Shown here: piece by piece, positions 10,261 through 25,756 of the stretch
Layout: each line of letters opens with the position of its first letter
Position numbering within the stretch: position 1 is the stretch's first letter
DNA from: Armatimonadota bacterium
GTDB taxonomy: Bacteria; Armatimonadota; UBA5829; DSUL01
Length of the DNA: 64,000 nucleotides
Direction: 5' to 3'
Assembly: GCA_025998755.1 (NCBI GenBank)
Contig: AP024674.1
Coordinates: 1,936,162 to 2,000,161, forward strand
Program-made: the position numbers and the translations under genes
The notes under the pieces: model-generated
Database searches by the model: none
Told to the model about the DNA's origin: nothing
What the model saw: the letters and a program-made list of their open reading frames with translations, nothing else

Positions 10261-12600
10261 TCATTCCGCCAGGATGCCTTCCTCATCCCGCTTGCCGGAA
10301 AGGATGAGTCCCAGAAGCCGCAGCGCGCCCGCTTTGTCCAGCGGTTCGTTCCCACTGCCGCACTTGGGCGAGTGAATGCAGGACGGGCATCCGTCCTCAC
10401 ACGGGCAATCGCGCAGAAGCTCTAGGGTCTCCGTCAGCAGATCCTTCAGCCTCAGATAGCACGCGCTTGCGATACCCACACCGCCAGGATACGCGTCGTA
10501 GATGAACACCGTCGCCAGTCCTCCGGAGTCCAGATGATAGGGATGCGAGATACCCCCCACATCCCACCGGTCACAGGATGCCACCAGCGGTGTCAACCCA
10601 ATGGCAGCGTGCTCGATGGCATGGATGCTGCCCATCAGGTCGAACCCATCATCGCTGAGCCGCCGCACCAGCCGGTGAGGGACGGTGAACCAGACTCCCT
10701 CCGTCAGGAAGCTCTGCTCCGGCAGGTCCAGATCCACCACTGCCTGCACAGAATCCGAATAGAGGTCTATCTTGCGATAGGCAACCACGCGCGAGGTCAC
10801 CTCCACCCGACCGAAATGCGCGGTTGCGGCACCCAGCGGGACACTCTCCACCTCCTCGACCACTCTCAGGTCCACCTCCTCCGCCGCGCGCGTGTAATAG
10901 TTGAACTCGCCGGGCTCCACCATCGCCTCACGCGAGACAAGGTTCAGGCTGACGACGCGGTAGCTCTCCCCCTGATGCAGGTAAATGGCCCCCTCGTGCA
11001 CCTCCCGGAATGCGCGCTCCGCGTCCACTTCGCCTAGCTCCTGCCCCGAGCGGGTTACGATCCGGAAGCGCGAGGAAGAGGACGAACGGATACCTACCTG
11101 GGCCGCAGGATAGTCGTCTGGAAGATAGTAGAACCTCCCACTCCGGAAGCCGAGTTCCCCCTCCGCACACATGCGCCAGGCGAGATCCGGGGCGTTGTCT
11201 CCGAACTCCAAGAGATCCTGCTCTGTGGTGGGAAGCTCGAAGACCGCGCAGCAGATATGCGGAGCCAGGATATACTCGTTGGCCGGGTTGACCAGCACGC
11301 GCTCGTGGCCCTGTTCGAAAAAGTAAGAGGGATGGGTCATCAGATACTGGTCCAGAGGATCCTCCAGCGCCACAAGCACACTGAGAGCCTCTTCGCGCCC
11401 CCGTCCCGCGCGGCCAGCCTGCTGCCAGGCGCTGGAGATAGTCCCGGGGTAACCCACCAGCACGGTGGCGTCCAGCCTGCCGACATCCACCCCCAGCTCC
11501 ATCGCATCGGTCGAGACCACGCCGATCAGGCTCCCGTCGAATAGCTGACGCTCGATCTCGCGGCGCTCCTCTGGACGGTATCCGGCCCGGTAGGACATGA
11601 CACGCTCGCGCAACTGCGGGTCGAAATGTTCCAGCTGCTCTCTGGCATAGCGCAGAACGAGCTCCGCGCTGCGGCGCGCACGGGTGAATGTGATGTTGCG
11701 CACCCCGTCCGCCACCAGCCCGGCGAACAGCCCGGTCGCTTCGCTGTGGGCGCTGCGCCGCCTTCCGTCGTTGCCCAACACGGGCGGGTTCCAGAACACG
11801 AATTTGCGCGGCCCCCGGGGCGATCCGTCATCATCGATCACGCGCACATCCAGTCCGCTTAGGCCCCGGGCCAGCTCTTGCGGATTGGCGATGGTGGCGC
11901 TGGTGAAGATGAACTGCGGGCGGGATCCATAATGCCGGCAGATCCGCCGCAGCCTGCGCAGCACGCAACCTACGTGTGAACCGAACACCCCCCGGTACGT
12001 GTGCATCTCGTCCAGCACGACGAACTCCAGGCGGCGGAAGAAGCGCCCCCAGGCTGCGTGATGGGGAAGGATGCCCTGATGGAGCATGTCCACGTTGGAG
12101 AGCACCAGTCTGGCCGCGCGCCGGGCCGCCGCGCGATCATCCCGAGAGGTGTCACCGTCGTAGGAGCAAAGCCTAACCCTGCCGGGCAGGCGGAACTGTC
12201 TCAGCTTGCCCAGCTGATCCTGCGCGAGCGCCTTGGTGGGATAAAGATAAAGGGCTGTGGCCGAGTGGTTGGTCAGCAGCCGCTCCAGCACGGGGAGGTT
12301 GTAACAGAGAGTCTTTCCGCTGGCCGTCCCGGTCACCACAGCCACGCTCTCGCCTGCCCTCACGGCGTCCAGCGCCGCTGCCTGATGGGTGTAGAGCGAC
12401 TCGACACCTGTTTCCTGCAGGGCACGGCGGAGCAAATCGGGCAGAGGACGGGCCGGTCCGGCATACCGGGCGTCTCGGGGCGGGATGTCCTCCACGTGAA
12501 CGATCTGCCCCGAATACCCCTGCGAATGGCGGATGCGCTCGAGGAACTGGAAAGGTGTCATCCGGCGGCCTGCCCTCCGCACGATTGTGACTGCGAACAC
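10261..12600 (-). CDS. mrfA: MrfA/YprA-family DEXH-box helicase with C-terminal DUF1998 zinc-binding domain
   Basis: Matches B. subtilis YprA by motif order along its length: LYTHQ, TGTASGKTLCYNLPV, ALYLYPTKALAQDQ, DEMHTYRGVFGSHV, SATIANP, ELGVD, WQQAGRAGR. DUF1998 signature DCPCEDGCPSCIHSPKCGSGNE. Confidence 0.85.
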   Translation of the reverse strand: MFAVTIVRRAGRRMTPFQFLERIRHSQGYSGQIVHVEDIPPRDARYAGPARPLPDLLRRALQETGVESLYTHQAAALDAVRAGESVAVVTGTASGKTLCYNLPVLERLLTNHSATALYLYPTKALAQDQLGKLRQFRLPGRVRLCSYDGDTSRDDRAAARRAARLVLSNVDMLHQGILPHHAAWGRFFRRLEFVVLDEMHTYRGVFGSHVGCVLRRLRRICRHYGSRPQFIFTSATIANPQELARGLSGLDVRVIDDDGSPRGPRKFVFWNPPVLGNDGRRRSAHSEATGLFAGLVADGVRNITFTRARRSAELVLRYAREQLEHFDPQLRERVMSYRAGYRPEERREIERQLFDGSLIGVVSTDAMELGVDVGRLDATVLVGYPGTISSAWQQAGRAGRGREEALSVLVALEDPLDQYLMTHPSYFFEQGHERVLVNPANEYILAPHICCAVFELPTTEQDLLEFGDNAPDLAWRMCAEGELGFRSGRFYYLPDDYPAAQVGIRSSSSSRFRIVTRSGQELGEVDAERAFREVHEGAIYLHQGESYRVVSLNLVSREAMVEPGEFNYYTRAAEEVDLRVVEEVESVPLGAATAHFGRVEVTSRVVAYRKIDLYSDSVQAVVDLDLPEQSFLTEGVWFTVPHRLVRRLSDDGFDLMGSIHAIEHAAIGLTPLVASCDRWDVGGISHPYHLDSGGLATVFIYDAYPGGVGIASACYLRLKDLLTETLELLRDCPCEDGCPSCIHSPKCGSGNEPLDKAGALRLLGLILSGKRDEEGILAE

Positions 12601-12692: not shown

Positions 12693-13217
12693 CTACAGGC
12701 GTTCAATCTGGCTGAACTCCAGCTCCACCGGGGTGTCCCGACCGAAGATGGAGATCAGCACCTTGACTGTCTCCTTCGGGACGTTCACGTCCTCTATCTT
12801 GCCGGTGAACTCCGCGAAGGGACCGCTGACCACGCGGACCACATCCCCCACCGCCCACTTGACGCGCGGAGGCTGCTTGGGTCCGTCCACCGCCTGAAGG
12901 ATGCCCTCGATCTCCCGATCCTGCATCGGCACCGGCTTGTTCCCGGAAGAAACGAAGCCGGTGACGCCGGCCGTGCTCTTCACCAGGTGCCAGGTGGTCT
13001 CATCCAGCACCATCTCGATGAGCACATATCCCGGGAAGATCTTGCGCTGAACTTCCGTTCGCTTGCCGCCGCGCGTGCGAAGCTCCGGCTCCGTGGGGAC
13101 AAGGATCCTGGAGATCTTGTCCTTCAGGTTGAGCGACTCAGCCCGGCGCTCGATGCTCGTCTTGACTTTGTTTTCGTGGCCCGCGTATGTATGAACCGCG
13201 TACCAGTGCTTTTCCAT
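12693..13217 (-). CDS. nusG: transcription termination/antitermination factor NusG
   Basis: NGN domain WYAVHTYAGHENKV; KOW motif GDVVRVVSGPFAEFTGKIEDV. Confidence 0.9.
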   Translation of the reverse strand: MEKHWYAVHTYAGHENKVKTSIERRAESLNLKDKISRILVPTEPELRTRGGKRTEVQRKIFPGYVLIEMVLDETTWHLVKSTAGVTGFVSSGNKPVPMQDREIEGILQAVDGPKQPPRVKWAVGDVVRVVSGPFAEFTGKIEDVNVPKETVKVLISIFGRDTPVELEFSQIERL

Positions 13218-13265
13218 TCCTGAGTCAGTGCTCCGCGCCGCCTGCTCCCGCCCTGCGGCAGGGCA

Positions 13266-13499
13266 TCAGCGGCCCAGTCCGAAGAGCGTCTTCGTGATGT
13301 AGGCCAGGATTGAATCTACTATGTATACGTAGAGAGTCACGAAAATGACGCCGGCGAAGACGGCCGTCGTCAATCTCCGGATGTCCTCCCACGACGGCCA
13401 GGTCGCCCTGCGGGTCTCCGCATAGGATTCCTTCAGGTAGTTCACCGCCTTCGTGAAGATCGAGGGCTCCCGCCTGGCCGTAGCCATCTTAGTCGCCAT
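13266..13499 (-). CDS. secE: preprotein translocase subunit SecE
   Basis: 77 aa; ...VNYLKESYAETRRATWPSWEDI... followed by a single TM helix. Canonical position between tRNA-Trp and nusG. Confidence 0.85.
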   Translation of the reverse strand: MATKMATARREPSIFTKAVNYLKESYAETRRATWPSWEDIRRLTTAVFAGVIFVTLYVYIVDSILAYITKTLFGLGR

Positions 13500-13538
13500 G
13501 CCTTGATGTATCCTGTGTCAGTCGCCTGAAAAAGGGGA

Positions 13539-13614
13539 TGGCAGGCCCTGCCGGATTCGAACCGACGACTTCTGGTTTTGGAGACCAGCGCTCTACCAGC
13601 TGAGCTAAGGGCCT
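13539..13614 (-). tRNA. tRNA-Trp (anticodon CCA)
   Basis: Acceptor stem AGGCCCT/AGGGCCT; anticodon loop cuCCAaa; encoded CCA 3' end; T-loop GGTTCGAATCC. Confidence 0.85.
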
Positions 13615-13690
13615 GCGACTCTCCGTGGAGAGAACCTGCGCCCGGCAGACGGATGCGCCGGAGGCAGCGCGCCCGGATGAACGCGGCAAG

Positions 13691-13822
13691 CTACTTCGCC
13701 TCCCGGTGCACAGTATGTTTTCGGCACACCGGGCAATGCTTCTTAAGTTCCAGCCGCTCCGTCTGCTTGCGGCGATTCTTGGTGGTCGCATAGTTGCGCG
13801 CCCGGCACTCCGTGCACGCCAT
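13691..13822 (-). CDS. rpmG: 50S ribosomal protein L33
   Basis: [43 protein letters not shown] (43 aa, two CxxC). Below the track's 60-aa cutoff. Confidence 0.8.
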
Positions 13823-13929
13823 CGTTATGACCACCCTGATATCTGTCGCCAACGTTGTCCTCCCGACAACAGGGAATCGCTCCGCCGCCGCGCCGCAGGC
13901 CGGCGGCGGAGCAACTCAATCCCTGAACA

Positions 13930-15132
<1,203 letters not shown>

Positions 15133-15249
15133 CTCCTCTACGATCCTCCAGAAAAAGATGTCCGGGAGCAGCCCGCCCCCGCGGATTCTTTCCAGAACAA
15201 GATGGCTGCTGGACGGCCCAACCCGGCGCGTGGTGCAGAAAAATGAAAA

Positions 15250-15321
15250 AGCCCACGACGGGATTCGGACCCGTGACCTCCTCTTTACCAAAGAGGTGCG
15301 CTACCCCTGCGCCACGTGGGC
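15250..15321 (-). tRNA. tRNA-Thr (anticodon GGT)
   Basis: GCCCACG acceptor stem, GCGCAGGGGTAGCGC D-arm, loop cuuGGUaa, T-loop GGTCCGAATCC. Confidence 0.8.
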
Positions 15322-15411
15322 ATTCTTTCCGCAACCCGGCGCCGGCCCGCGGCCGCCGCAGGCTCCCGGTGCCTCGACGGGGCAGCCTGGAACGCCTGCA
15401 TTTTGACAATC

Positions 15412-15494
15412 TGGGGGGAAGAGGATTCGAACCTCTGTAGGCGTTCGCCGGCAGATTTACAGTCTGCTCCCTTTGGCCGCTCGGGCATCCCCCC
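15412..15494 (-). tRNA. tRNA-Tyr (anticodon GTA)
   Basis: GGGGGAUGCCCGAGCGGCCAAAGGG...cuGUAaa, long variable arm, T-loop GGTTCGAATCC, encoded CCA. Confidence 0.8.
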
Positions 15495-15651
15495 GCAACA
15501 GTCACTGCGCCCATGGCAGGAGCTGCCGCCCCGGCGCAGCCCTGCCGTACAGGGCAACGCCGCGCACGGCGCATTCTAGCGGAATCGCGCCGCTTCCTGC
15601 AACCTCCGCGCACGAGCGTGGGCGCGGACGGCCTCCAAAAAATAGAGTGAG

Positions 15652-15723
15652 AGCCGACGAAGGGAATCGAACCCCCAACCGGCGGTTTACAAAACCGCTG
15701 CTCTACCATTGAGCTACGTCGGC
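15652..15723 (-). tRNA. tRNA-Thr (anticodon TGT)
   Basis: GCCGACGUAGCUCAAUGGUAGAGC...uuUGUaa, T-loop GGTTCGATTCC. Confidence 0.8.
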
Positions 15724-15922
15724 ACCGCGCCAACAAAAAGCAGCCGGTCCTCTGTTCCGGCTACCACCTCCGATTATATTGGCAAGCCCGGCGGGTGTCA
15801 ACGAGGGCGATTTTCACCCGCTTACGAGCCCTTGACAGGGAGCGCCACAGGAAGTCGCGCACGCCGTTTGACTGGCTGCCGTCGCCGGTGCCTGATTGAG
15901 CCTCCGGCCTAACTCTGCCCCT

Positions 15923-16738
15923 TCAGTCCTGCAGCCCGTAAGCGCGGGCGGCCTCTGAAGGTGCCAGGCCCTCCTGCACGACGGCGCACAGGGCCCGTTG
16001 AAAGGCCGCCGGGTCCGGCACCTGGACGGCGTTGCGGCCGAACACCACACCGCGGCCGCCTCCCTGGACGATCCGCTCCGCAAGCTCCAGCGCCTGGATC
16101 TGGCGCGGAGTCTTCTCCGCCCCCAGTCCCAGAACGGGCACAGGGCAGCCCTGCGTCACCTCGTTGAAGCGTACAGTACAGTAGGTCTTGATCAGGTCGG
16201 CTCCGAGTTCCGCAAGGATGCGGCTGCCGCGCATCACTTCGTCGTGCAACTCCTCAGGGCTCAGACGGTCCGGGCGCGCGGGGAAATACTCCCCCACCAC
16301 AGGCAGGCCCAGGCGCCGCGCCTCGGCAGCCAGCCGGCAGAACAGCTCAACGTTCGCGGCGTCGCGTCCCTCATCGCCGGTCTTGAGTGTGAGACAGATC
16401 AACACGCACTCGGCTCCCAGCGCAACCGCATCCTGCGGGGAGAATGCCTCCACCGCGATCCCGGCCTCATAGTTCCAGTGAAAGCAAAAGTGGGTGCTCC
16501 AGTTCAGGCGGACCACAGCCATCGGCGCGCCTTTGACCGAGAACGCGTGCGCCGTGTGGCGCAGCATCCCCGGCGACAAAAGGATGGCCGACACGCACGG
16601 ATCGATCCTTCGGACCGTATCCCCCAGGTCCACCATTCCCGGCAGCGGCCCGTCGAACTCCCCGTGGTCCACGGCCACCACCACCGCGTTGCGGCCGCCG
16701 CTGAAAAGCCGCGCCAGCCGGATATCTCTGCCCGTCAT
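15923..16738 (-). CDS. DhnA-family class I aldolase (DeoC/LacD-type TIM barrel)
   Basis: 271 aa; DhnA-like pattern ...AVVVAVDHG..., ...VRLNWS..., ...LIKTYC..., ...VVFGRNAVQ... Confidence 0.65.
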   Translation of the reverse strand: MTGRDIRLARLFSGGRNAVVVAVDHGEFDGPLPGMVDLGDTVRRIDPCVSAILLSPGMLRHTAHAFSVKGAPMAVVRLNWSTHFCFHWNYEAGIAVEAFSPQDAVALGAECVLICLTLKTGDEGRDAANVELFCRLAAEARRLGLPVVGEYFPARPDRLSPEELHDEVMRGSRILAELGADLIKTYCTVRFNEVTQGCPVPVLGLGAEKTPRQIQALELAERIVQGGGRGVVFGRNAVQVPDPAAFQRALCAVVQEGLAPSEAARAYGLQD

Positions 16739-16772
16739 CTACCAGATCCTCTCCCCCTGTCCGAAGCCCGAT

Positions 16773-18212
16773 TCAGGCCCGGTAAAACTCCAGAGCGCGC
16801 CGGTAGGCGTCCAGATACCGCCCGTAAAACTCCCGCTCGGCCTCCACGCGTGAAGGCTGCGGTTCAACGACGCGGACAACTCGGCCCGTCCATGCGGCGG
16901 GGCACCCGCCAGCGGCCAGACGCGCGGCTCCGTAACACGCCGACTCCGCGCAGTCCAACACCTCCACCGGAAGGCCCAGGATGTCCGCAATCAGCTGCGG
17001 CCATAGGGCGCTCTTCGTAGCTCCCCCCACCATCCGCAACCGCTCCGGCCCGCCGGCCAGCGGCGCCGCCGCTTCCAGATTGCGCCGCGCCTCAAACGCC
17101 AGCCCGCGCATAACAGCAAGCTCGATGTCCGCGGCCGTGTGCGAAAGGGTCAGCCCCACGAGCGTCCCCTTTGACTCCTCCCGCCAGTCCGGACAAAGCC
17201 CCCCGTAGAGGTGGGGGATGAAGATGAGAGGGTCTTTGCCGGAATCCGCCTCTGAGGCAGCGCCATCCGCCCCGAACGTGCGCCTGACCCAGTCAAACAC
17301 CGTGCCGCCGCTGAACGGAAGCACCAGCCCCCATGCATCCGACTGCACGTGGCAACAGACGGGAAGGTTGCCCTCCGGATCCCGGGGGGGACGCAAGGCC
17401 ACGGCGTAGAGCACCCAGGCTGTCCCGCATGAGAGCACCCAGCGCCCGCCCGGCGCGGCCCCCGCCCCGTGGGCCGCGGCAGCCTGGTCGAAGGCTCCGG
17501 CCACCACCGGCGTCTTCTCCGGAAGTCCGAGCTCGGCTGCCGCATCCCGCGAGAGACAGCCGATAGGCTCCCCGGCCTCCGCCGTCTCCGGCAGGTACTC
17601 CACCAGCAGGCCCACCATCTGGGCCACTTTCCCGGACCAGCGCCTCGCAAACGGGTTGAAAAACGGGGTCCACGAAGCTGACGGCACATCCGCAACGCGC
17701 CGTCCGGTCATCCGCCATGCCAGAAAGTCCGGCACCCAGCAGACTACGCCGTCTCGCAGCGTCTCCGGTTCGTTCTCGGCCAGCCACAGCACAGCGCACG
17801 CCGAACTGTAAGGCGTCAAGCGGATCCCTGTCTCCGAATACCAGAACCGCTGATCCGCCTCCGCCAGCAGGCGGGCGCACTCCGCGGATGAGCGCGCGTC
17901 CATCCAACTGATGGCTGGCCGCAAGGGGCGTCCGCATCGGTCTGCGGCGATGAGGGTATCTCCCTGTGTGCTGAGGGCCAGTGCGGCCACACTTTCCGGC
18001 TCCCTGCCGCAGGAGCGCAACTGCTCCAGACAGCCCCGCACCACCGAGACCAGCCCCCTCCAGAAGTCCTCCGGGTCCTGCTCGGCCCAACCCTGGTGCG
18101 GATGGGACATCCCGTACGGATCCTGCGCTTCCGCCAGAATGCTGCCCTCATCATCCACGGCGAGGCACTTGGCGGAAGTCGTGCCGATGTCCGCCCCAAG
18201 GAAGATGGTCAC
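16773..18212 (-). CDS. FGGY-family carbohydrate kinase (xylulokinase/ribulokinase-like)
   Basis: N-terminal FLGADIGTTSAKCLAVD; C-terminal MVGGATKSALWPQLIADILGLPV. Probable GTG start at 18212-18210 overlapping the isomerase stop (GTGA). Confidence 0.8.
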   Translation of the reverse strand: MTIFLGADIGTTSAKCLAVDDEGSILAEAQDPYGMSHPHQGWAEQDPEDFWRGLVSVVRGCLEQLRSCGREPESVAALALSTQGDTLIAADRCGRPLRPAISWMDARSSAECARLLAEADQRFWYSETGIRLTPYSSACAVLWLAENEPETLRDGVVCWVPDFLAWRMTGRRVADVPSASWTPFFNPFARRWSGKVAQMVGLLVEYLPETAEAGEPIGCLSRDAAAELGLPEKTPVVAGAFDQAAAAHGAGAAPGGRWVLSCGTAWVLYAVALRPPRDPEGNLPVCCHVQSDAWGLVLPFSGGTVFDWVRRTFGADGAASEADSGKDPLIFIPHLYGGLCPDWREESKGTLVGLTLSHTAADIELAVMRGLAFEARRNLEAAAPLAGGPERLRMVGGATKSALWPQLIADILGLPVEVLDCAESACYGAARLAAGGCPAAWTGRVVRVVEPQPSRVEAEREFYGRYLDAYRRALEFYRA

Positions 18213-19648
18213 GCGCTCGCGATCTCCTCCACCCGCCAACGCATCATCCGGCCGAAGCTCGTAATCTCCGGGAGCACGTCGCCATACACGAGAGCAGCAT
18301 GGTGGGTGCCGCCGGCCTCGCCATAGCGCTCCAGGAAGCGTTCCACGGGGATCTCCGGCCGGATCCATCCCCGGATGGCGCCCTCCATCCGGTCCGGCTC
18401 CTCGCCGTCCACCTCCACCGGCGCAGCGATGAGCGTGAATGTCCCGTCCGGGCCGGGCGCCAGATTGGCGAATACGGCGCGACCGGGCCGGAAGCGTCCC
18501 ACGGCCACCGCCGGCGTCTCCGCGTCAATCCAGGGCATCTCCTTTGCGATCAGCCGGGCCCGGCCTTCGGCCATCTCCGGGTTCATCTCCGCCATGTGGC
18601 TCAGGAAGATGCGCCCCCCCTTCCAGTCCGGACAGAACATCTCCGTGAAGGTGGTCTCCGGAAAAACACCGGCCAGCGCGCTCACGAAGGCGGCCGTCAG
18701 GACGTCCCCCTCCCCGGCATAGCCGATGCCGCGGCTCATGGCCTTCGATGCCTCAAGGAACGGGATGGTGGGCAATCCGCACGAGCGCCGGAATTCGTCG
18801 AAGTTCATGGTAAAGGCGTCCACGCGCTCCTGTTCCAGCCAGCGACGCAGAGCGATGGAGGCGCGCGCCGTGGCCGCGTGCACGCCCTCATCCAGCCCGG
18901 ACGCATCGAAGAACTCCCTGTCCGCCTGCATCTCTGCCTGCACCGCCGGATCGTCCTGAGGAGGCAACAACCCCGGCAGATCCTCGAAACCCGCCCGGAC
19001 GATGGTCAGTCCCACCGCGCGCTTCAGATCCTGGTCCGGCACCTGGAAGTCACCCATCCCTCGGAAGGGCCTGCCAAGGGACCCCACCCGGGCCAAGCGC
19101 ATCCGCGAGGCCATCGCCGCCCCGCGGGCGTGCGCCGCGACACGTTCCAGAACGTCCGACTCCTGCCAGTGTCCCGCTTCAATGAGGAAGTCTTTACGCG
19201 AGCGCAGCAGCAGGTTGCATAGATCCTGCACGCCGTGAATGCCGTGGTTGTACATTAGCTCGCCGGGATCCTGCTGCGGGCCGTAGTCGAAAGCGGGAGT
19301 GGTATCCAACACAATGAGGGGAAGAGCCGTCCCAGCCAGCGCCTCCGCCGACTCCAGCGAGGGAGAGTATGCCAGATGCAGTGTGACGATGGCATCCGCG
19401 CCGGCGTCCTCGAAACCGCGGACGGCCTCCCGGAACTCGGACTCCAGGCGGCACACCGGCGAGCGCAACACCCGCAGGCCCCTTCCCTCCATCTCCAGTG
19501 CGATGGTCCCGTAGAACGCGTCTATCCGCCCCCGGACCTCCGGCAGCACCCGGTCGTACAACTCAAGATACAGCCCCAGGAAGCCGACGCAGGGCCGGCA
19601 TCGCGTTGCGCAGCCTTCAGGCCCGTCTCCTCGATTTATTGCGCCCAT
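18209..19648 (-). CDS. L-arabinose/L-fucose isomerase-family sugar isomerase (AraA-like)
   Basis: 479 aa; N-terminal VGFLGLYLELYD; MYNHGIHGVQDL motif. Start ATG overlaps the aminotransferase stop (TGATG). Confidence 0.6.
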   Translation of the reverse strand: MGAINRGDGPEGCATRCRPCVGFLGLYLELYDRVLPEVRGRIDAFYGTIALEMEGRGLRVLRSPVCRLESEFREAVRGFEDAGADAIVTLHLAYSPSLESAEALAGTALPLIVLDTTPAFDYGPQQDPGELMYNHGIHGVQDLCNLLLRSRKDFLIEAGHWQESDVLERVAAHARGAAMASRMRLARVGSLGRPFRGMGDFQVPDQDLKRAVGLTIVRAGFEDLPGLLPPQDDPAVQAEMQADREFFDASGLDEGVHAATARASIALRRWLEQERVDAFTMNFDEFRRSCGLPTIPFLEASKAMSRGIGYAGEGDVLTAAFVSALAGVFPETTFTEMFCPDWKGGRIFLSHMAEMNPEMAEGRARLIAKEMPWIDAETPAVAVGRFRPGRAVFANLAPGPDGTFTLIAAPVEVDGEEPDRMEGAIRGWIRPEIPVERFLERYGEAGGTHHAALVYGDVLPEITSFGRMMRWRVEEIASA

Positions 19649-21021
19649 CAGTCGTAGCCCAGGCGCTTCTGGACCTCGGCAATGGACTCCTCGATGATGT
19701 CCATCGCCTTTTCGGCCACATCGAACGGCATCACGATGGGCGGGCTCATCCTGAGGATATGACCGGCCGGGATCCAGGCCAGCCCCTTGCTGAAGGCTGT
19801 CTGATACACCAGCTTACCGGCTTCGTCAAACGGCTCCTTTGTGGCCTTGTCCTTGACCAGTTCCACGCCCATCAGACACCCTTTCACGCGGGTGTCTCCC
19901 ACGATGTTGTACTTGGTGGTCCAGTCAGCCATCTTGCGGCGGAACAGATTCTCCAGCTGCACGGCGCGCTCCAGCAGATTCTCTTCCTGGATCACCTCGA
20001 TGCAAGCCAGGGCCGCCGCGCAGGCCATCGGGTTTCCACCGTAGCTGGTGCTGGCGCTGATGCGGTCCACCGCGTCGGCGTACGGCTCCCGGACGACCAT
20101 GGCCGTCACCGGGAAGCCGTTTCCGAAACCTTTCCCCAAGGTGACCACATCCGGCACCACATCCCAGTGCTCCGTGCAAAGGAACTTGCCAGTCCGGCCC
20201 ATCCCCGTGAGCACCTCATCCGTGAAGAGCAGGATGCCGCGCTCGTCGCAGAATTTCCTCAGCTTCGGGAAGAAATCGTCTGGAGGCATGATGGACCCGC
20301 CCCAGCCCTGGATGGGCTCCAGCACGAAAGCCGCCACATCGCCCGCCGTCCCGTTCGTGATGAAGGAGTCGTAGTATTCCAGATACTTCTCCGTGTCCAA
20401 GGAGCCGTCCTCGCGGGTCCAGAGGGGCCGGTAGGTGTCCGGCCGGGGCAACAGGTAGAAACCGGGGGCGCGCGTGGGGCCGTACAGCTTATTGGTGCTG
20501 GCCAGGCTCACCGCATGACCGGTCTTGCCGTGGAAATCCCGGAAACAGGAAAGAAACTCCTGGCGGCCGGTGGCGGCTCGGCAGGTGCGAAGCCCGGCCT
20601 CCACGGCAGTGGTTCCGCTGTCGTAGAGCTGCACGCCTCTGAGATCCCCAGGCAGCACCTCCGCCAGCTTCTCCAGAAGCTTCACCTTGAGTGGAGTGGT
20701 GAAGTCGTGGGCGTTCATCAGGGTGTGCGCCGCTTTCGCCACCGCTTCGGAGATCTTCGGATGGCAATGCCCCAGCGTGGTGACATAGATCCCGCTGGAA
20801 AAATCAATGTAGCGGTTACCGTCCACGTCCTGGAGAGTGACGCCGTAACCTTTCTCAAAGACCACGGGGAACAGGCGCACCTGGCCGGAAAGCCCACGGA
20901 TGTAGCGCGTGGCGCGCTCGTGGAGCTCGCGGGATTTCGGTCCGGGCGGGGGGGTGACGATGCGGGGATATTCGCTCAGGTCCACGTCCGCCCAGTACTT
21001 CGTTTCCATTACGGTCGCCAT
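19648..21021 (-). CDS. class III pyridoxal-phosphate aminotransferase (omega-aminotransferase family)
   Basis: 457 aa; DFSSGIYVTTLGHCHPKI; DEVLTGMGRTGK PLP-lysine region; C-terminal fold typical of GABA/acetylornithine aminotransferases. Confidence 0.85.
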   Translation of the reverse strand: MATVMETKYWADVDLSEYPRIVTPPPGPKSRELHERATRYIRGLSGQVRLFPVVFEKGYGVTLQDVDGNRYIDFSSGIYVTTLGHCHPKISEAVAKAAHTLMNAHDFTTPLKVKLLEKLAEVLPGDLRGVQLYDSGTTAVEAGLRTCRAATGRQEFLSCFRDFHGKTGHAVSLASTNKLYGPTRAPGFYLLPRPDTYRPLWTREDGSLDTEKYLEYYDSFITNGTAGDVAAFVLEPIQGWGGSIMPPDDFFPKLRKFCDERGILLFTDEVLTGMGRTGKFLCTEHWDVVPDVVTLGKGFGNGFPVTAMVVREPYADAVDRISASTSYGGNPMACAAALACIEVIQEENLLERAVQLENLFRRKMADWTTKYNIVGDTRVKGCLMGVELVKDKATKEPFDEAGKLVYQTAFSKGLAWIPAGHILRMSPPIVMPFDVAEKAMDIIEESIAEVQKRLGYD

Positions 21022-21367
21022 GGCTTGTGCCTCCGTCTCGCCGGGTCTAGCCTCTCCTCGCCCGACACCGCCCAGCCTGTATGATTATGCAGATTTCTCC
21101 AGAAAAGTCAACATAACATCAGCCTGGTTCTGGTGGCAGGAAACGCAAGCTGCAGCTTTTTCACGAACCGCAAGACTGTTGCCGGAGCGCGAGAGGATTC
21201 GGCACGGATTGGAGGCTGGCCTCCGCCGCTGGACCGCCGGAAAGCCGCCAGCTGCAGGAAAGCGGCTGCGAGGCGGCGAAACGGCGGTGCAAAAGGACGC
21301 AAACGGCCTGCCTGCGGATGGCCGTGCCTGCTCTCTCAGCCTGCAAGAATAGAAGGAGAATATCCCT

Positions 21368-24300
21368 GTGAGCACCGTGCTTTCCCTGCTGCTGGCGCTT
21401 GCTCTTGTGGCGCCGGCGGAAGCGGCCGCGCCTGCGGCCGGAAAGTTCGCGCACTATGTGGCATCTCCCTCCGGCGAGCGGTTCGAGTGCCCTATCTCGG
21501 ACGTCTGGATTCAGGCCGGCCCGGTCGAGGACTCCGGAGGGCGGCGGATGCAGTGGTGGACCTTGACCCTTCGGAAGCAGAACGGCGAACGGCTGGCAGT
21601 CCGCGCCCTGTCCGCGAAAGTCCCGATGACAGGGCGGGAAGGTCCGGGCGAGATCGCCCGCTACCAGTTCCTTCCGGGGGCGGAAAAAACCGCGCTGGAG
21701 TATGTGGACGACTCGACGGGACGCGCCTTGCTTCCGTCCGAGTATGACTTCGTCCGCAACTTCCTGCCTCGCCCTGCGCCTGATGCGCGCTTTACGGACG
21801 GATTCGCCTCTGCCGGCGAGATTATGGGCCACACCATCACCCGGACCACACGAACTGCCTCTCCGCCCGATGTCAGTTTCCAGCCACTCAAGACCTTGCG
21901 CATCCGCACAGACTTTGTGATCGGCACCGGCCGGACATTCCGGGACGACGGCACAGGACGCAATCTGCCAGACGGAGACTATACCTATATCCCCTGGACC
22001 CAGGACGACTATGAGAAGATGCTGGCCGCAGGGTTCAACTACTTCGCCATCTCCTCGCCAGATCTGCGCGCCTGGCTGCTGGAGCAGCCCGCCTTCATTG
22101 CTCTGGGGACCGGAATCGTCTATCCGGACGATCTATACCGGTCCAACGTGCTGACAGCGGACATGTTCATTGATGAGCCCATGGTCCGGATGGGCTGGAC
22201 CGGCGGCATCCCGATAAACCCTACCGGGCCGGAGCAGGTGGCCGAAGCGCTCCGGAAGCGCGTGTCCGCCCACTACGCTCTGCGCGATCGCCTGTTGCCG
22301 GTGGGACGCGGACTGGACGGCACACTGGACCTGGTGCGTCCTAAGGCTCCTTCGTGGGAGACCGAGTTCTGGTCGGCCTGGTATCAGTTGCAGGCCGGAG
22401 CGCCGGGGATAGTGCACGAAGGCCGCTACGTGAAGCGCGGCTTTGGGTGGGAACCTGAGCGTCTGGTGGGTGAAGGACTGGAAGGTCTCACGAAGACCGA
22501 TATGTTCAACTTCTATTACGCCTTCCTGCGAGGCGCGGCAAGATCCTTCGGAGGATACTGGGGCACCAGCCTCTACGGACATTCGGATGTGGATCTGCGC
22601 GTGCCCGCCTTCATCCGGGCATACCAGATGGGAGCGCGCAACCTCTGGTTCTGGACCTCGGATCACGAGCACCATATGCCGTTCTCGGAGCAGCTGCGCA
22701 TCGCCCATGCCATCACGGATTACGCCCGCCAGCATCCGCGCACCAGCCCGGAGAAACTGCTCCGGCAAGCGAAGGTGGGCATCGCCCTTCCGCCGGGATA
22801 CGCCTTCACCTGGGACGGAACCTGGGGTATGGAAAGGGAAAGGCTCAACCCGGCGGGCGTCAGCTACGGCGACATCTCGGCGGCTCTGTTTTGGGAGGGC
22901 ATCATTCAGTCGAGGCGGGGAGTGGAGTTCGATTTCCTGGTGGATCATCCCGGAATCGAGAAGCTGGGCTACGAACAGTTAGTCATCATCCAAGAGAATG
23001 GCTCCGTGCTGCGCATTCCTCCAGCTCGCGAGGTGCGCTCTCCCGGCGATGTCCGGGTGAAGGTGACAAAGTCGCAACCGCTCCTTCAGCAGACAGGCGG
23101 GAGACCCGTAGCCGGCGAGATCCGGCGCGCCCCCGCCATTCGAGTTGACGGGAACCTCTCGGAATGGCGAGGGGCCGACTGGAAGAGCCTGGGACCTGCG
23201 GACTGGTTCGGCGACAGCAGTCGGCTCATCATTTCGCTCAGCGCGCCGGCTGGCTACACCCCTGCGCCGGGAGACTGCCTGGGCGCCCGCATCCAGAAAC
23301 TGACGCCGGAGTTGATGGAGCGTTACGCCGTGGAAGCGTTCATCGAGTACGAAGACTACCTGGTGGTCAGGCACGTGGAGGCAGGCTCGCCCGCGGAAGC
23401 TGCAGGGCTCCGAGAAGGAGACGTCATCCTCACTTTGGACCGGGAACGGGTTCGCAATCCCCAAGCAATGGAACGCCTGGCGGCGCGGCTGGCCCGGCAG
23501 CCCGGCAGCAAGGCGGAGATAGAAGTCATTCGGTCCGGACGGTCGCGCTACGGCGGGGAGAAGGATCTCTCCGGCAGTTTCGCCTTTCAGGTGGATGACA
23601 GGAACCTGTACTTCGCAGCGCGGGTCCGCGACGACGTCCACGTTCAGGATCTGGACGGGTGGCACATTTGGCAGCAGGACAGCGTGCAGATCGCCCTGGA
23701 CCCGGCCCTTGAAGCGACGAAAGGCGGTTACGGCGAGAACGATCACGAGATCGGGTTCGCACTGCGGGGCACCGAGACGCTGGTCTGGCGGTGGAAGGGC
23801 CGCCGGGGCCAGCCGGTCCAGCGGCCAGCAGGAGTAAGGGCCTTCGCCGTGCGGCAGGGGGCCGAGACCATTTATGAAGCGGCGATCCCTCTTCGGGAGA
23901 TCGCTCCTTTCGCACCCGAGGTCTGGCCGCTGTGCGGGGTGAATGTGGTGATCAACGACAGCGATCAGACGGAAACCCGCAAGGGGCGGCTGGAACTGGT
24001 TTCCGGAGCAACGACGCGCGGCAAGAATCCGGACCGCTTCGCCGTGTTCCACACGCAGCCCACCGGACACGGGCGCAGGCTCTCCGCAGGCATCACCTGG
24101 GACCGGCGATGCGCGCAGGAAGGCGGAAGGCTGCAGGCGACGCTGTCCCTCTGCTCCAGAGAGACGCAGGAAGCCGTCGTGCGGACCGAGATGCGCTCGC
24201 TGGATACTCCTTCGGCTCCTTCGAGCGTGCGAGAGACGAGGGTGCCGGTGACTCCTGAGCCGCGTGCTCTAAGTTTGGAGATCTCCAGCGCCTCTCCGGC

Positions 24301-24400
24301 CGGACGGTACCTGCTGGACATCAGCGTGCGCACAATCTCCGGCCAGTTGGCGGCCCGCGACCGCCTGCCGGTGTTCATCTACCCTCCAGCGCGCCGTTAG
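21368..24400 (+). CDS. large secreted multidomain protein: unknown N-terminal ~550 aa + PDZ + CBM9/DOMON-like domain
   Basis: Signal peptide MSTVLSLLLALALVAPAEA. PDZ: VVRHVEAGSPAEAAGLREGDVILTLDRERV. CBM9-like: YFAARVRDDVHVQDLDGWHIWQQDSVQIALDP. Confidence 0.7.
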   Translation: MSTVLSLLLALALVAPAEAAAPAAGKFAHYVASPSGERFECPISDVWIQAGPVEDSGGRRMQWWTLTLRKQNGERLAVRALSAKVPMTGREGPGEIARYQFLPGAEKTALEYVDDSTGRALLPSEYDFVRNFLPRPAPDARFTDGFASAGEIMGHTITRTTRTASPPDVSFQPLKTLRIRTDFVIGTGRTFRDDGTGRNLPDGDYTYIPWTQDDYEKMLAAGFNYFAISSPDLRAWLLEQPAFIALGTGIVYPDDLYRSNVLTADMFIDEPMVRMGWTGGIPINPTGPEQVAEALRKRVSAHYALRDRLLPVGRGLDGTLDLVRPKAPSWETEFWSAWYQLQAGAPGIVHEGRYVKRGFGWEPERLVGEGLEGLTKTDMFNFYYAFLRGAARSFGGYWGTSLYGHSDVDLRVPAFIRAYQMGARNLWFWTSDHEHHMPFSEQLRIAHAITDYARQHPRTSPEKLLRQAKVGIALPPGYAFTWDGTWGMERERLNPAGVSYGDISAALFWEGIIQSRRGVEFDFLVDHPGIEKLGYEQLVIIQENGSVLRIPPAREVRSPGDVRVKVTKSQPLLQQTGGRPVAGEIRRAPAIRVDGNLSEWRGADWKSLGPADWFGDSSRLIISLSAPAGYTPAPGDCLGARIQKLTPELMERYAVEAFIEYEDYLVVRHVEAGSPAEAAGLREGDVILTLDRERVRNPQAMERLAARLARQPGSKAEIEVIRSGRSRYGGEKDLSGSFAFQVDDRNLYFAARVRDDVHVQDLDGWHIWQQDSVQIALDPALEATKGGYGENDHEIGFALRGTETLVWRWKGRRGQPVQRPAGVRAFAVRQGAETIYEAAIPLREIAPFAPEVWPLCGVNVVINDSDQTETRKGRLELVSGATTRGKNPDRFAVFHTQPTGHGRRLSAGITWDRRCAQEGGRLQATLSLCSRETQEAVVRTEMRSLDTPSAPSSVRETRVPVTPEPRALSLEISSASPAGRYLLDISVRTISGQLAARDRLPVFIYPPARR

Positions 24401-24415
24401 GAAATCCGGAACGGT

Positions 24416-25141
24416 TCAGCCCTCGCCGGGAGGGGCAGGGGCTCCGTCCCGCGGTTCATAACCCAGCAGGCGCCGCGTGGATTCCAGGTCCAGACGAGGC
24501 TCGCGGTTGTCACTGATGCCGTGCACGATGGCGAAGCCGACATCGCGCGGAGCCTGCAGGGCGAGGTGAAGGAGCTGACACAGGTCGTCCTTGCTGACGA
24601 AAAGTCGGAAGAAGTCCGGAAACGTCTCGCGGGCGAGGCGAGCTGGATCCGAAAAAGCACCGATGCGGACCGCGATGCAGCTCATGCCCTTGCTGGCGTA
24701 GACGTGGCAGAGCGCTTCGCCGAAACACTTTGTCGCTGCGTAGGCGTTCAGCGGGCGAGGTGGCATATCGGGTGTGACGGGCAAATCCGTCGGGTAGCCC
24801 ACCACCGTCTGCACGCTGGATGCGAAAACAAAACGCCCCACACCCCGCCTGAAGGCGGCATCGAACAGATAAGCGGTGACCGCCAGATTGTTGGCCACTA
24901 ACGACGGCAGGGAAGCGTTCGTGTTCGGATCCGCTGCGAGATGCAGAACCGCCTCTACGTTCTCCGTCAGCCTCCAGAGCAGGTCTGGGTCATTTGCATC
25001 GCCGATGACCCAGCGGCCCGCGGAAGCGAACTCGCCCGCTGGATAGACCCGATCGGTCAGGATCAGGTCATAATGGCCCCCGTAACGTTCTATGAAGGCG
25101 GACGCGATGCGGCCCGCGGCTCCCGTAATCAGCAGTTTCAA
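24416..25141 (-). CDS. NAD-dependent epimerase/dehydratase (SDR family)
   Basis: MKLLITGAAGRIASAF Rossmann motif; YAATKCFGE catalytic YxxxK. Confidence 0.8.
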   Translation of the reverse strand: MKLLITGAAGRIASAFIERYGGHYDLILTDRVYPAGEFASAGRWVIGDANDPDLLWRLTENVEAVLHLAADPNTNASLPSLVANNLAVTAYLFDAAFRRGVGRFVFASSVQTVVGYPTDLPVTPDMPPRPLNAYAATKCFGEALCHVYASKGMSCIAVRIGAFSDPARLARETFPDFFRLFVSKDDLCQLLHLALQAPRDVGFAIVHGISDNREPRLDLESTRRLLGYEPRDGAPAPPGEG

Positions 25142-25180
25142 AATGGGGCGGCTCCTCCGGCCCGCGCGTCCGGGCGCGAC

Positions 25181-25756
<576 letters not shown>

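Follow-up and report, generated by a model that had tools for sequence, protein, structure and literature searches.

What is a class-III aminotransferase doing at the head of an operon that otherwise encodes an isomerase, a sugar kinase and an aldolase? The question is raised by four genes in the window, the whole 64,000-nucleotide stretch of Armatimonadota DNA analyzed here. All four open reading frames lie on the minus strand, at the positions and in the common direction given by the first-pass annotation, and are preceded by a promoter-like site:

21084..21111, minus strand: promoter-like site that reads TTGACT, a 16-nt spacer and CATAAT and lies 63 nt 5' of the AT start codon
21021..19648, minus strand: AT, 457 aa, class-III (omega-type) PLP aminotransferase that leads the operon
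19648..18209, minus strand: ISO, 479 aa, distant member of the L-arabinose isomerase superfamily
18212..16773, minus strand: KIN, 479 aa, FGGY-family sugar kinase with a GTG start
16738..15923, minus strand: ALD, 271 aa, DhnA-type class I (Schiff-base) aldolase

At the AT/ISO junction, TGATG, stop and start codons overlap, and at the ISO/KIN junction, GTGA, the GTG start of KIN overlaps the stop of ISO. KIN and ALD are separated by 34 nt, with a GGAG-type ribosome-binding site 5' of ALD. The two overlaps and the short gap had been described correctly at first reading, except that three junctions were said to overlap, where there are only three in all and two of them do so. The site 5' of AT has 10 of 12 consensus matches and is a candidate promoter; a consensus scan of the region found two such sites against 0.6 expected. 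The gene calls, including the KIN GTG start, agree with independent calls on a relative (L161, 78% nucleotide identity), in which KIN is likewise a 479-aa gene. Relatives have the four genes in synteny, and the set recurs in many bacterial phyla, which places the arrangement well past chance expectation. Together with the coupled junctions, this synteny bears out the original view that they form one real operon.

Profile matches in Pfam and NCBIfam agree with the families first assigned to the four proteins (aminotransferase, AraA-like, FGGY and DhnA), none of which reaches a curated NCBIfam equivalog cutoff. In alignments, the catalytic residues of ISO, ALD and AT are intact. ISO matches Pfam AraA_central and Arabinose_Iso_C at 40.5 bits each, both above cutoff, and its family profile finds AraA of the PDB at E = 1e-33. 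The metal and catalytic residues of AraA align with the invariant E313, E336, H351 and H449/H450 of ISO, a predicted metal-dependent aldose-ketose isomerase. The family spans at least 587 species and forms a clade separate from AraA; with 82.7 bits against a cutoff of 622 for the NCBIfam AraA model, ISO is not assignable to that characterized isomerase. KIN carries FGGY_N (184 bits) and FGGY_C (88 bits), is nearest to the xylulokinase model TIGR01312 (290 bits, below the cutoff of 380) and matches XylB of the PDB at E = 4e-54. ALD belongs to Pfam DeoC/LacD (62.5 bits). Its D24, the lysine of its ADLIKT motif and its GRN motif fall on the MDHG, ADIVKT and GRN of MJ0400, and the same lysine is in register with that of AQIIKT in LsrF. 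Its orthologues are 58-87% identical across phyla.

The best NCBIfam matches of ALD are to DhnA-type enzymes, namely ADH synthase, LsrF and archaeal class I FBP aldolase, all below cutoff. The two ADH synthase models, which score highest, and a match to BagB/FevI would suit a biosynthetic operon, in which an aldolase like ADH synthase or GriI/BagB makes an amino-keto sugar acid or an aromatic precursor and AT provides or modifies the amine. This is very improbable. The scores (145.6, 107.7 and 68.7 bits) lie far below the respective cutoffs of 241, 299 and 500, and neither a DHQ synthase II nor any other downstream biosynthetic gene was seen in the window or in the related loci. The first-pass annotation had left the choice between catabolism and biosynthesis open. 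Catabolism is now favored and biosynthesis disfavored, because DeoR repressors and transporters occur in related clusters along with glycoside hydrolases and N-acyl amidohydrolases, and some loci also have a glutamate or alanine dehydrogenase (GDH/AlaDH).

A comparison of the operon with known catabolic systems shows a shared logic and different parts. L-Fucose and L-rhamnose catabolism (FucI/FucK/FucA and RhaA/RhaB/RhaD) also proceeds from an isomerase through an FGGY kinase to an aldolase that yields DHAP and an aldehyde, and ISO shares its superfamily with AraA and FucI. Those systems, however, use a class II metal aldolase, whereas the operon has a class I Schiff-base enzyme and an aminotransferase in the lead; ISO and KIN score below the AraA, FucI, FucK and RhaB equivalog cutoffs. 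The operon resembles araBAD in that an FGGY kinase adjoins an isomerase of the AraA superfamily whose four metal and catalytic residues are all present, but it lacks the AraD epimerase and has an aldolase and an aminotransferase, and its isomerase is of a separate clade. Sulfo-EMP sulfoglycolysis (YihS/YihV/YihT) degrades a 6-substituted 6-deoxyhexose through an isomerase, a kinase and a class I aldolase, YihT, which belongs to the DeoC/LacD family as ALD does. The isomerase and kinase of the operon come from other families, sulfonate-handling genes are absent from it, and an aminotransferase is present. The Lsr system for AI-2 processing pairs an FGGY kinase, LsrK, with the DhnA-type class I enzyme LsrF. 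The operon lacks LsrG, LsrR and the Lsr transporter, Lsr has no counterparts of ISO and AT, and ALD and KIN fall far below the LsrF (108.7 bits, cutoff 297) and LsrK (132 bits, cutoff 528) cutoffs.

AT itself is a clear member of Pfam Aminotran_3 (PF00202, 320 bits). Its top curated match, the NCBIfam model "acetylornithine aminotransferase family", and its closest solved relative, 7vno (deposited as a hypothetical 4-aminobutyrate aminotransferase), would fit a housekeeping enzyme (ArgD, GabT or ornithine aminotransferase) placed beside three sugar genes by accident. Such an accidental neighbor is extremely improbable. The match of 380 bits falls short of the 552-bit cutoff, AT stays below the equivalog cutoffs for ArgD, GabT and all others, and its stop codon overlaps the ISO start. 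AT orthologues from several phyla, 65-93% identical, are embedded in DeoR-type sugar clusters. AT is therefore a genuine pathway member, as the first-pass annotation had supposed, and not a chance neighbor or a stray ArgD or GabT. Alignment to E. coli GabT identifies K297 as the PLP lysine and shows D268 and R424 conserved, so that AT keeps the arginine (R424) for the α-carboxylate of glutamate and 2-oxoglutarate. In contrast, GabT R141 is replaced by K166 and GabT E211 by W240, both invariant among AT orthologues, and AT thus lacks the arginine and glutamate pair by which GabT handles an omega-carboxylate substrate; the arginine is the substrate-binding one of GabT- and ArgD-type enzymes. These replacements fit an uncharged or cationic amine substrate.

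The fold of AT is shared by PLP enzymes that are not transaminases, and AT could be a phospho- or ammonia-lyase acting on the KIN product, or could epimerize or racemize an amino compound. Its closest solved and curated relatives include the Ala/Ser racemase 9wqz, isoleucine 2-epimerase and a broad-specificity racemase, as well as lyases (the PbfA model at 271 bits and ethanolamine-phosphate phospho-lyase 6tor at 174 bits), and a kinase is the second most common neighbor of AT orthologues, which recalls known pairs of kinase and phospho-lyase. AT is nevertheless below cutoff for every NCBIfam lyase and racemase model, it conserves the arginine for the co-substrate, and a 2-oxo-acid co-substrate would suit the GDH or AlaDH that some clusters have beside the aminotransferase. 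We consider a non-transaminase quite improbable.

Genome-context comparison, which had been suggested at first reading, shows the same genes recurring across phyla, in several loci in the proposed reaction order. Among 42 AT orthologue loci whose flanks reach 8 kb or more, with each family counted within 8 kb, Gfo/Idh/MocA oxidoreductases occur at 62%, FGGY kinases at 55%, DeoR at 52%, aldose-ketose isomerases (several families taken together) at 50%, amidohydrolases at 40% and the ALD family at 31%. By rough inference, chance alone would put a given FGGY gene within 8 kb of AT in about 2% of cases. The order is AT-ISO-KIN-ALD, after DeoR, in L001, AT-GFO-ISO-KIN-ALD in L002 and L085, and AMH-GFO-AT-ISO-KIN-ALD-GH2 in a complete Armatimonadota genome. 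A non-orthologous class-III aminotransferase, AT2, fills the AT slot in Firmicutes, Spirochaetota and Victivallales; Paenibacillus daejeonensis and Cohnella phaseoli are cultured examples that have the AT2 form. The isomerase slot is held by AraA-like, FucI-like, LYX cupin or NagB-like proteins, and the amidohydrolase slot by five families; NagA-like and NagB-like proteins are among the AT neighbors. The best model for some of the FucI-like proteins is sulfoquinovose isomerase SftI, far below cutoff. In or beside the clusters are SSS, sugar-porter MFS and ABC transporters and glycosidases of GH2, GH9, GH38, GH78-like and GH116 families. In the window, neither a regulator nor a transporter adjoins the operon, and an Amidohydro_2 protein is absent.

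Alanine dehydrogenase adjoins AT2 in five loci and glutamate dehydrogenase adjoins AT in three, the pattern of catabolic transaminations with acceptor regeneration. Taurine:pyruvate aminotransferase and alanine dehydrogenase work in this way, the dehydrogenase regenerating the keto-acid acceptor. The related clusters resemble such omega-transaminase modules in joining class-III entry deamination to a neighboring dehydrogenase. They differ in that the carbon skeleton is apparently a sugar, which then meets an isomerase, a kinase and an aldolase, and no amino-acid dehydrogenase of GDH/AlaDH type adjoins the operon in the window.

These observations point to a catabolic operon for an aminated, often N-acylated sugar, which would be deaminated, isomerized, phosphorylated and cleaved by aldol cleavage; from sequence comparison, we give this reading a little better than an even chance. 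No description of such a route was found in the literature. In the first step, AT with 2-oxoglutarate would take the amino group off an amino sugar or amino-polyol to leave a carbonyl. If this were a ring ketone, it would need reduction to a hydroxyl, presumably by the Gfo/Idh/MocA oxidoreductase encoded beside AT in most related clusters. No Gfo/Idh/MocA gene lies near the operon in the window, so reduction would occur in trans, or would be unnecessary should the amine be terminal and deamination yield an aldose directly. ISO would then convert aldose to ketose, KIN would phosphorylate the ketose, and ALD would cleave it via a lysine Schiff base to an aldehyde and a triose phosphate that is probably DHAP. 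The gene order in the window is the proposed reaction order; the catabolic direction, the sequence of the steps, the site of phosphorylation by KIN and the ALD products are inferred. The ring-amine version of this model requires the Gfo/Idh/MocA reductase that is missing from the window and from the L001 cluster. Class-III aminotransferases usually act on terminal amines, and sugar ring amines are normally the task of DegT-type enzymes, which also counts against the model, as does the lack of a regulator or transporter beside the operon in the window.

AT could instead stand at the end of the pathway. ISO, KIN and ALD would then degrade an ordinary, non-aminated rare sugar or uronate, and AT would aminate the reactive aldehyde from ALD; malonate semialdehyde, for example, would give β-alanine, glycolaldehyde would give ethanolamine, and lactaldehyde would give aminopropanol. 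Interconversion of aldehydes and primary amines is typical of class-III enzymes, ALD and AT are immediate neighbors in either order in six loci (L035, L044, L106, L108, L109 and L113), neither a dehydrogenase nor a reductase for the aldehyde from ALD is seen in the operon, and an adjacent GDH or AlaDH could equally provide the amino donor. Furthermore, 60% of ISO clusters are without any aminotransferase, so the core can run alone. Yet the most common AT neighbor is Gfo/Idh/MocA rather than ALD, the amidohydrolases beside AT imply that an N-acylated amine enters, conversion of half the carbon to amine would be a poor catabolic sink, and AT has no arginine with which to bind malonate semialdehyde or succinate semialdehyde by its carboxylate. 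Amination at the end of the pathway is unlikely.

The related clusters also recall myo-inositol catabolism, which employs IolG, IolB, IolC and IolJ under the DeoR-type repressor IolR in Bacillus subtilis. Like the iol system, they combine a Gfo/Idh/MocA dehydrogenase, an isomerase, a kinase and an aldolase yielding DHAP and an aldehyde with DeoR-type regulation. A variant cyclitol pathway would have AT convert an inosamine to an inosose and, after ring opening, ISO, KIN and ALD act as IolB, IolC and IolJ, the final products being DHAP and malonate semialdehyde. The Gfo/Idh/MocA paralogues, several per cluster, have IolG among their NCBIfam matches, creatininase-family hydrolases weakly match the ring-opening IolN (64 bits, cutoff 245), a weak match to the UxaE family (tagaturonate epimerase) adjoins L001, and the sugar-porter and SSS transporters would fit. 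The protein family differs from iol at every step, however, and the window lacks a Gfo/Idh/MocA gene, a dehydratase and a ring-opening hydrolase near the operon. The GH2, GH9, GH38, GH116 and NagA/NagB-like genes suggest aldoses released from glycans, and free inosamines are rare in nature while the cluster is widespread. A cyclitol route is distinctly unlikely.

Three further genes flank the operon:

25181-25717, minus strand: D-lyxose-isomerase-like cupin, Pfam Lyx_isomer
24416-25141, minus strand: short SDR/epimerase-family dehydrogenase, Pfam Epimerase
21368..24400, plus strand: secreted-looking 1010-aa protein, divergent from the operon, Pfam PDZ and CBM9_1 (CBM9-like)

The cupin and SDR pair (24416..25717) is found in synteny with the operon in both L081 (97% identity) and L161 (87% identity), and other lineages likewise have LYX-like cupins close to AT or ISO (L022, L024, L050, L096, L102 and L134). 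The pair is possibly accessory to the pathway. L081 and L161 have the 1010-aa protein in the corresponding position, at 79% identity. Its N-terminal 640 aa, which precede the PDZ and CBM9-like domains, have no Pfam match, no family matched residues 1-644, and no match was found in loci L001-L080 at E < 1e-10. It is a syntenic neighbor for which any link to the operon is putative.

Returning to the catabolic reading, an amino-deoxy sugar, an inosamine and a terminal amino-polyol are all possible substrates. Our favored guess is an amino-6-deoxyhexose from bacterial glycans, because the GlcN-6-P deaminase route is closed to such sugars and because, once deaminated, they need exactly a fucose- or rhamnose-like isomerase, kinase and aldolase. 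Across ISO loci, an Amidohydro_2 protein is present in 81%, a kinase in 76% and any aminotransferase in 40%. The sugar handled by the core pathway may therefore be non-aminated, and the aminotransferase would be an entry module on an isomerase-kinase core rather than a universal partner. The related clusters are heterogeneous and may act on several substrates rather than one.

The operon at 15923-21021 consists of four open reading frames that run in one direction, as the first-pass annotation had read them, all on the minus strand:

AT, 21021-19648, minus strand: class-III aminotransferase, 457 aa; Pfam Aminotran_3 (PF00202), 320 bits
ISO, 19648-18209, minus strand: AraA-like isomerase, 479 aa; Pfam AraA_central and Arabinose_Iso_C, 40.5 bits each
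KIN, 18212-16773, minus strand: FGGY kinase, 479 aa from a GTG start; Pfam FGGY_N and FGGY_C
ALD, 16738-15923, minus strand: DhnA-type class I aldolase, 271 aa; Pfam DeoC/LacD aldolase family (PF01791), 62.5 bits

Of the three overlapping junctions listed in that annotation, two stand: the AT stop overlaps the ISO start (TGATG) and the ISO stop overlaps the KIN start (GTGA). The four genes have only three junctions, and the third is a gap of 34 nt, within which ALD has a GGAG-type ribosome-binding site. A promoter-like TTGACT-16-CATAAT, a match to consensus, lies 63 nt upstream of AT, and an Rfam scan of 12-26 kb returned only tRNAs, with no riboswitch or leader. Gene calls made independently on a relative, L161, recover all four genes with identical lengths and overlaps. 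Long plus-strand ORFs run antisense to the operon (15998-17020, 17981-19222 and 19498-21084; 340-528 aa) and are the usual artefact of DNA with 65% GC.

AT is a class-III PLP aminotransferase by its PF00202 match and by residues K297 and D268. Aligned to E. coli GabT, in a reference sequence identical to PDB 1sf2, K297 falls on the PLP lysine K268 and D268 on D239, and both residues are invariant in orthologues. R424 keeps the position of GabT R398, the arginine by which the alpha-carboxylate of glutamate or 2-oxoglutarate is bound. GabT R141, the arginine of the 'HGRT' motif that contacts the substrate carboxylate, is replaced by K166, and the gating E211 by W240; both replacements are invariant in the orthologues sampled from different lineages. 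With K297, D268 and R424 retained and the other two positions altered, AT appears to be a functional keto-acid-dependent transaminase whose substrate pocket differs from those of enzymes acting on GABA, ornithine or acetylornithine. Among solved structures the nearest are Pyrococcus 7vno, entered as a hypothetical GABA aminotransferase, together with several racemases and epimerases that use PLP. The latter leave room for a rival in which AT is a PLP lyase or racemase, against which the retained carboxylate-binding arginine speaks. The best model for AT, 'acetylornithine aminotransferase family', scores 380 bits (cutoff 552), while the GabT model gives 279 (cutoff 507) and the ArgD model 262 (cutoff 410). 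A housekeeping ArgD or GabT that is present by mere adjacency was rejected on these missed equivalog cutoffs, on the replacement of R141 and E211, and on the presence of orthologues in sugar clusters.

The second gene was annotated as AraA-like, and at the family level this holds: AraA_central and Arabinose_Iso_C both exceed their Pfam cutoffs, which places ISO in the AraA/FucI superfamily, and the profile search finds no characterised AraA equivalog. Against the NCBIfam AraA equivalog NF002795 ISO scores 82.7 bits (cutoff 622), and phmmer against PDB AraA chains reaches only E = 2.7e-18; a profile of the ISO family aligns to solved AraA structures at E = 1e-33. In that profile alignment GEGD, FTEMF, SHMGE and GGTHH of ISO fall on GEGD, FMEDY, AHMLE and GGAHH of AraA. 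E313, E336, H351 and H449/H450 are invariant in 24 family members, the counterparts in Geobacillus AraA being E306, E331, H348 and H447, its Mn2+-binding and catalytic residues. With the Glu and His pairs of the Mn site kept, ISO looks catalytically competent. The family is large and its conservation is good. When one genome per species was scanned, ISO relatives turned up in at least 587 species, including Armatimonadota, Verrucomicrobiota, Kiritimatiellia, Planctomycetota, Acidobacteriota, Spirochaetota, Clostridia, Paenibacillus and Cohnella, and thousands of database proteins match the family, most of them unnamed or called 'L-arabinose isomerase family protein'. An exact-sequence look-up of the window's own ISO returned no record. 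Neither ISO (one match, 26% identical) nor AT has an orthologue in the plasmid collection, so a link to opine or rhizopine plasmids is unsupported.

KIN belongs to the FGGY family, with 183.8 bits for FGGY_N and 87.7 for FGGY_C (cutoffs 28.8 and 27), and like the other three proteins it looks catalytically competent. It scores 290 bits against XylB TIGR01312 (cutoff 380.25) and falls much further below the cutoffs of the other FGGY equivalogs (glycerol, gluconate, fuculose, rhamnulose, ribulose and AI-2). ALD is a DhnA/DeoC-type class I aldolase by its DeoC/LacD domain and an aligned lysine. Its ADLIKT aligns with ADIVKT of MJ0400 and AQIIKT of LsrF, which brings into register the Schiff-base lysine (K184 in MJ0400, K203 in LsrF); the DHG and GRN motifs are also in register, and the enzyme looks catalytically competent. 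The operon's sole aldolase is, as first proposed, of class I and not of class II. ALD stays below the cutoffs of archaeal class I FBP aldolase (104 bits, cutoff 430) and of the PRK07226 subfamily (145.6, cutoff 241). Two further candidates were set aside on such scores: a biosynthetic role like that of ADH synthase (TIGR01949, 107.7 against 299.45 bits) and an Lsr-like AI-2 system (LsrF, 108.7 against 297 bits).

The company kept by AT and ISO was examined from both sides. For ISO, 80 loci were fetched, their ORFs clustered and the families labelled by Pfam and NCBIfam; for AT, a metagenome scan with an alignment of orthologues gave at least 575 loci, of which 80 were kept, with orthologues 65-93% identical to the window's AT. 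Because antisense ORFs in high-GC loci spoil an ORF-based census and produce spurious 'families', partners were counted by tblastn within a radius of 8 kb, in 62 ISO loci and in the 42 AT loci with enough flank.

Gene families within 8 kb of AT and of ISO (share of loci)
Gfo/Idh/MocA oxidoreductase: AT, 62% (GFO-b/c type); ISO, 65% (any type)
FGGY kinase: AT, 55%; ISO, 76%
DeoR regulator: AT, 52%; ISO, 37%
Some aldose-ketose isomerase: AT, 50%; ISO, not applicable (anchor)
Some amidohydrolase: AT, 40%; ISO, 82% (Amidohydro_2 alone, 81%)
ALD family: AT, 31%; ISO, 35%
ISO family: AT, 19%; ISO, not applicable (anchor)
Class-III aminotransferase: AT, not applicable (anchor); ISO, 40% (AT 19%, AT2 21%)

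Gene orders recur as well. Two loci (L002 and L085) read AT-GFO-ISO-KIN-ALD, where GFO is the Gfo/Idh/MocA oxidoreductase; L001 has DeoR followed by AT-ISO-KIN-ALD; L035, labelled Planctomycetota, has DeoR-AT-ALD-KIN-ISO; and the complete Armatimonadota genome CP070648.1 has Amidohydro_2-GFO-AT-ISO-KIN-ALD-GH2. The census and these orders show that AT belongs stably to sugar-type clusters and is no ArgD or GabT neighbour by chance; a housekeeping enzyme that is merely adjacent was one half of what the first-pass annotation named as fatal to its amino- or rare-sugar reading.

Several other genes recur in these loci. The most constant partner of ISO is the Amidohydro_2 protein, encoded just upstream (for example L017 8928-10016); it has no NCBIfam match and a best PDB hit of E = 0.018, and neither it nor the GFO partner has close characterised or solved relatives. 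L006, an Actinomycetota-labelled MAG, carries two separate pairs of AT and Gfo/Idh/MocA genes in one locus together with ISO, KIN, a DhnA aldolase of a second type (36% identical) and glutamate dehydrogenase; the doubled pairs could serve a diamino sugar or two related substrates. Proteins of the uroporphyrinogen-decarboxylase or MtaA-CmuA methyltransferase fold, in at least five sequence clusters, also recur in sugar clusters (L030 4915-6126, L084 4253-5383, L085 2843-3973, L106 and L119). The L085 gene immediately precedes AT and points the same way, and the window has a relative at 38914-39966 that is 35% identical to one group and has no Pfam match. Sugar O-demethylation is one guess for their role.

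Three positions in these clusters can be filled by different proteins. In Firmicutes, Spirochaetota and Victivallales the place of AT is taken by AT2, a non-orthologous class-III aminotransferase of roughly 520 aa, in similar clusters ordered AT2-GFO-KIN-AMH-ISO (AMH, amidohydrolase). Near AT, the isomerase may be ISO, FucI-like, a D-lyxose-isomerase-like cupin or NagB-like, and the amidohydrolase comes from five families (Amidohydro_2, Amidohydro_3, NagA-like Amidohydro_1, neutral-ceramidase-like and creatininase-like). That unrelated proteins take one another's places suggests that the clusters follow one pathway logic. AT2 has alanine dehydrogenase as a neighbour in 5 loci, and AT has glutamate dehydrogenase in 3; a dehydrogenase beside a transaminase is the arrangement of catabolic transaminations that regenerate their keto-acid acceptor. 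Transporters (SSS, sugar-porter MFS and ABC) and glycoside hydrolases (GH2 of the beta-mannosidase group, GH9, GH38, GH78-like and GH116) lie in or beside the clusters. Taken together, the displaced parts, the dehydrogenases and the transporters and glycosidases make the breakdown of an aminated sugar the most economical reading.

We therefore propose, from gene-neighbourhood association, a transaminase-initiated amino-sugar catabolic cluster, a proposed and not an established family, in which AT deaminates the sugar that ISO, KIN and ALD degrade. An aminated sugar, often N-acylated, would be released from a glycan and deacylated; the class-III transaminase would then deaminate it, a Gfo/Idh/MocA enzyme would reduce the keto product where needed, and the sugar would pass to the isomerase, the kinase and the aldolase.

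Proteins of about 440-490 aa that weakly match the N-terminal portion of neutral/alkaline ceramidase occur in many PVC- and Acidobacteria-type loci, between AT or GFO and the kinase (L160 7081-8418, L096 11741-13072, L048 6904-8373 and others), and GH116 enzymes, of the glucosylceramidase family, flank two AT loci (L108 and L112). These two observations could be fortuitous, or could point to a substrate that is N-acylated.

The window holds the minimal form, AT-ISO-KIN-ALD. Beside it there is no Gfo/Idh/MocA, Amidohydro_2, DeoR or transporter gene; the window's only Gfo/Idh/MocA gene is 27 kb away, and the setting is one of housekeeping genes (nusG, tuf, tRNAs and helicases). Two versions of the pathway would accommodate this form. 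If the amine is terminal, AT would give the aldose directly and gene order would equal reaction order; if it is on the ring, reduction of the keto-sugar would fall to a gene product from outside the operon, perhaps the neighbouring short dehydrogenase (SDR). The relatives L081 and L161 are 78% identical to the window in nucleotides over the operon and have its local order, from a D-lyxose-isomerase-like cupin, the SDR and a 1010-aa PDZ/CBM9 protein to AT, ISO, KIN and ALD. Protein identities of 93% for AT, 72% for ISO, 75% for KIN and 87% for ALD on this background indicate, at the sequence level, that all four genes are under purifying selection, AT most strongly.

Conservation in these two relatives extends to the flank. 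The SDR (24416-25141, minus strand; 241 aa) is 87% identical and comes closest to the model of the archaeal NAD-dependent glucose-6-phosphate dehydrogenase Azf, though far under its cutoff (119 against 400 bits). The adjoining D-lyxose-isomerase-like cupin (25181-25717, minus strand) is unusually constrained, at 97% identity despite the 78% of the operon DNA, and cupins of this type recur near AT or ISO in unrelated lineages. The divergent gene at 21368-24400 (plus strand) encodes 1010 aa with a signal-peptide-like N-terminus and, after residue 644, PDZ and CBM9-like domains; residues 1-644 match no Pfam family. L081 and L161 have the protein at the corresponding position with 79% identity; it is absent from the other 80 ISO loci and could be an undescribed carbohydrate-active enzyme.

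On the other side, the downstream unit at 12693-15801 (minus strand) begins with a perfect consensus promoter, TTGACA-17-TATAAT, at 15801-15773 and comprises tRNA-Thr(TGT), tRNA-Tyr, tRNA-Thr(GGT), EF-Tu, tRNA-Trp and NusG. Between the ALD stop and this promoter no terminator-like site turned up. L161 has a different gene after ALD (238 aa, other strand), so the junction with the tRNA-tuf unit is not conserved. Two helicase genes are unrelated to the operon: an MrfA/HRQ1-like DEAD-box helicase with an MZB zinc domain (10261-12600, minus strand; 779 aa) and a large Lhr-type helicase (34535-38866, plus strand; 1443 aa).

Our favoured guess for the substrate, a tentative one, is an amino-6-deoxyhexose. 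Such sugars cannot be phosphorylated at position 6 and so cannot undergo NagB-type deamination; once deaminated, they need exactly a fucose- or rhamnose-like isomerase, an FGGY kinase and an aldolase. The variety of N-acyl groups that they carry in nature would match the variety of the amidohydrolases. Hexosamines, 4-amino-4-deoxy-arabinose, amino-alditols and inosamines are also possible, and the heterogeneous clusters may serve more than one substrate. The recurrent glycosidases single out no one sugar but suggest a gluco- or manno-configured glycoside; GH2, GH9 and GH116 each contain hexosaminidases. Three points count most strongly against an amino-sugar route: ISO clusters often lack any aminotransferase, the commonest partner of ISO is the uncharacterised Amidohydro_2 protein, and sugar ring amines are usually handled by enzymes other than class III. 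Beside these points stand two less likely rivals, one in which AT acts on the aldehyde released by ALD and one in which the genes form an iol-like cyclitol pathway. It is possible, though we hold it with more doubt than confidence, that these clusters encode a widespread amino-deoxy-sugar route of N-deacylation, class-III transamination, ketone reduction, a new AraA-like clade, FGGY kinase and DhnA aldolase, built of interchangeable, non-orthologous parts across Armatimonadota, PVC, Acidobacteriota, Firmicutes and Spirochaetota, for example for N-acylated perosamine, viosamine, fucosamine or quinovosamine of O-antigens, capsules and S-layer glycans.

A comparison with known systems separates the familiar from the new. 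The sequence of isomerase, kinase and aldolase is classical and common to the window operon. In araBAD, the L-ribulose-5-phosphate 4-epimerase AraD is encoded with AraA and AraB, whereas the window operon and its flanks have no AraD-like gene and the fourth gene is a class I aldolase. Fucose and rhamnose pathways use a class II metal-dependent aldolase, FucA or RhaD, in contrast to the sole, class I, enzyme here. What is new relative to the classical logic is the transaminase entry, the separate AraA-like clade and the DhnA-type class I aldolase. Full-text literature searches found no description of this cluster, and AT, ISO, KIN and ALD reach no curated cutoff in NCBIfam. Paenibacillus and Cohnella are cultured carriers of a related cluster; Paenibacillus daejeonensis DSM 15491, Cohnella phaseoli CECT 7287 and Cohnella soli have the form with AT2.

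Amino sugars of microbial cell envelopes form a large pool of carbon and nitrogen in soils and sediments. To our knowledge, the well-known catabolism of amino sugars runs through 6-phosphorylated hexosamines and NagA/NagB-type enzymes, which cannot handle 6-deoxy or unusual amino sugars, and interest in the cluster would rise if its substrate were a class of amino-deoxy sugar that has no known catabolic route. If the proposal is true, its transaminases, isomerases and class I aldolases would be useful for making amino and rare sugars, and a large clade of proteins now called 'L-arabinose isomerase family' or 'aspartate aminotransferase family' would gain functions. It would also account for the recycling of such sugars by Armatimonadota, Verrucomicrobiota, Planctomycetota, Acidobacteriota and Paenibacillus-type bacteria.
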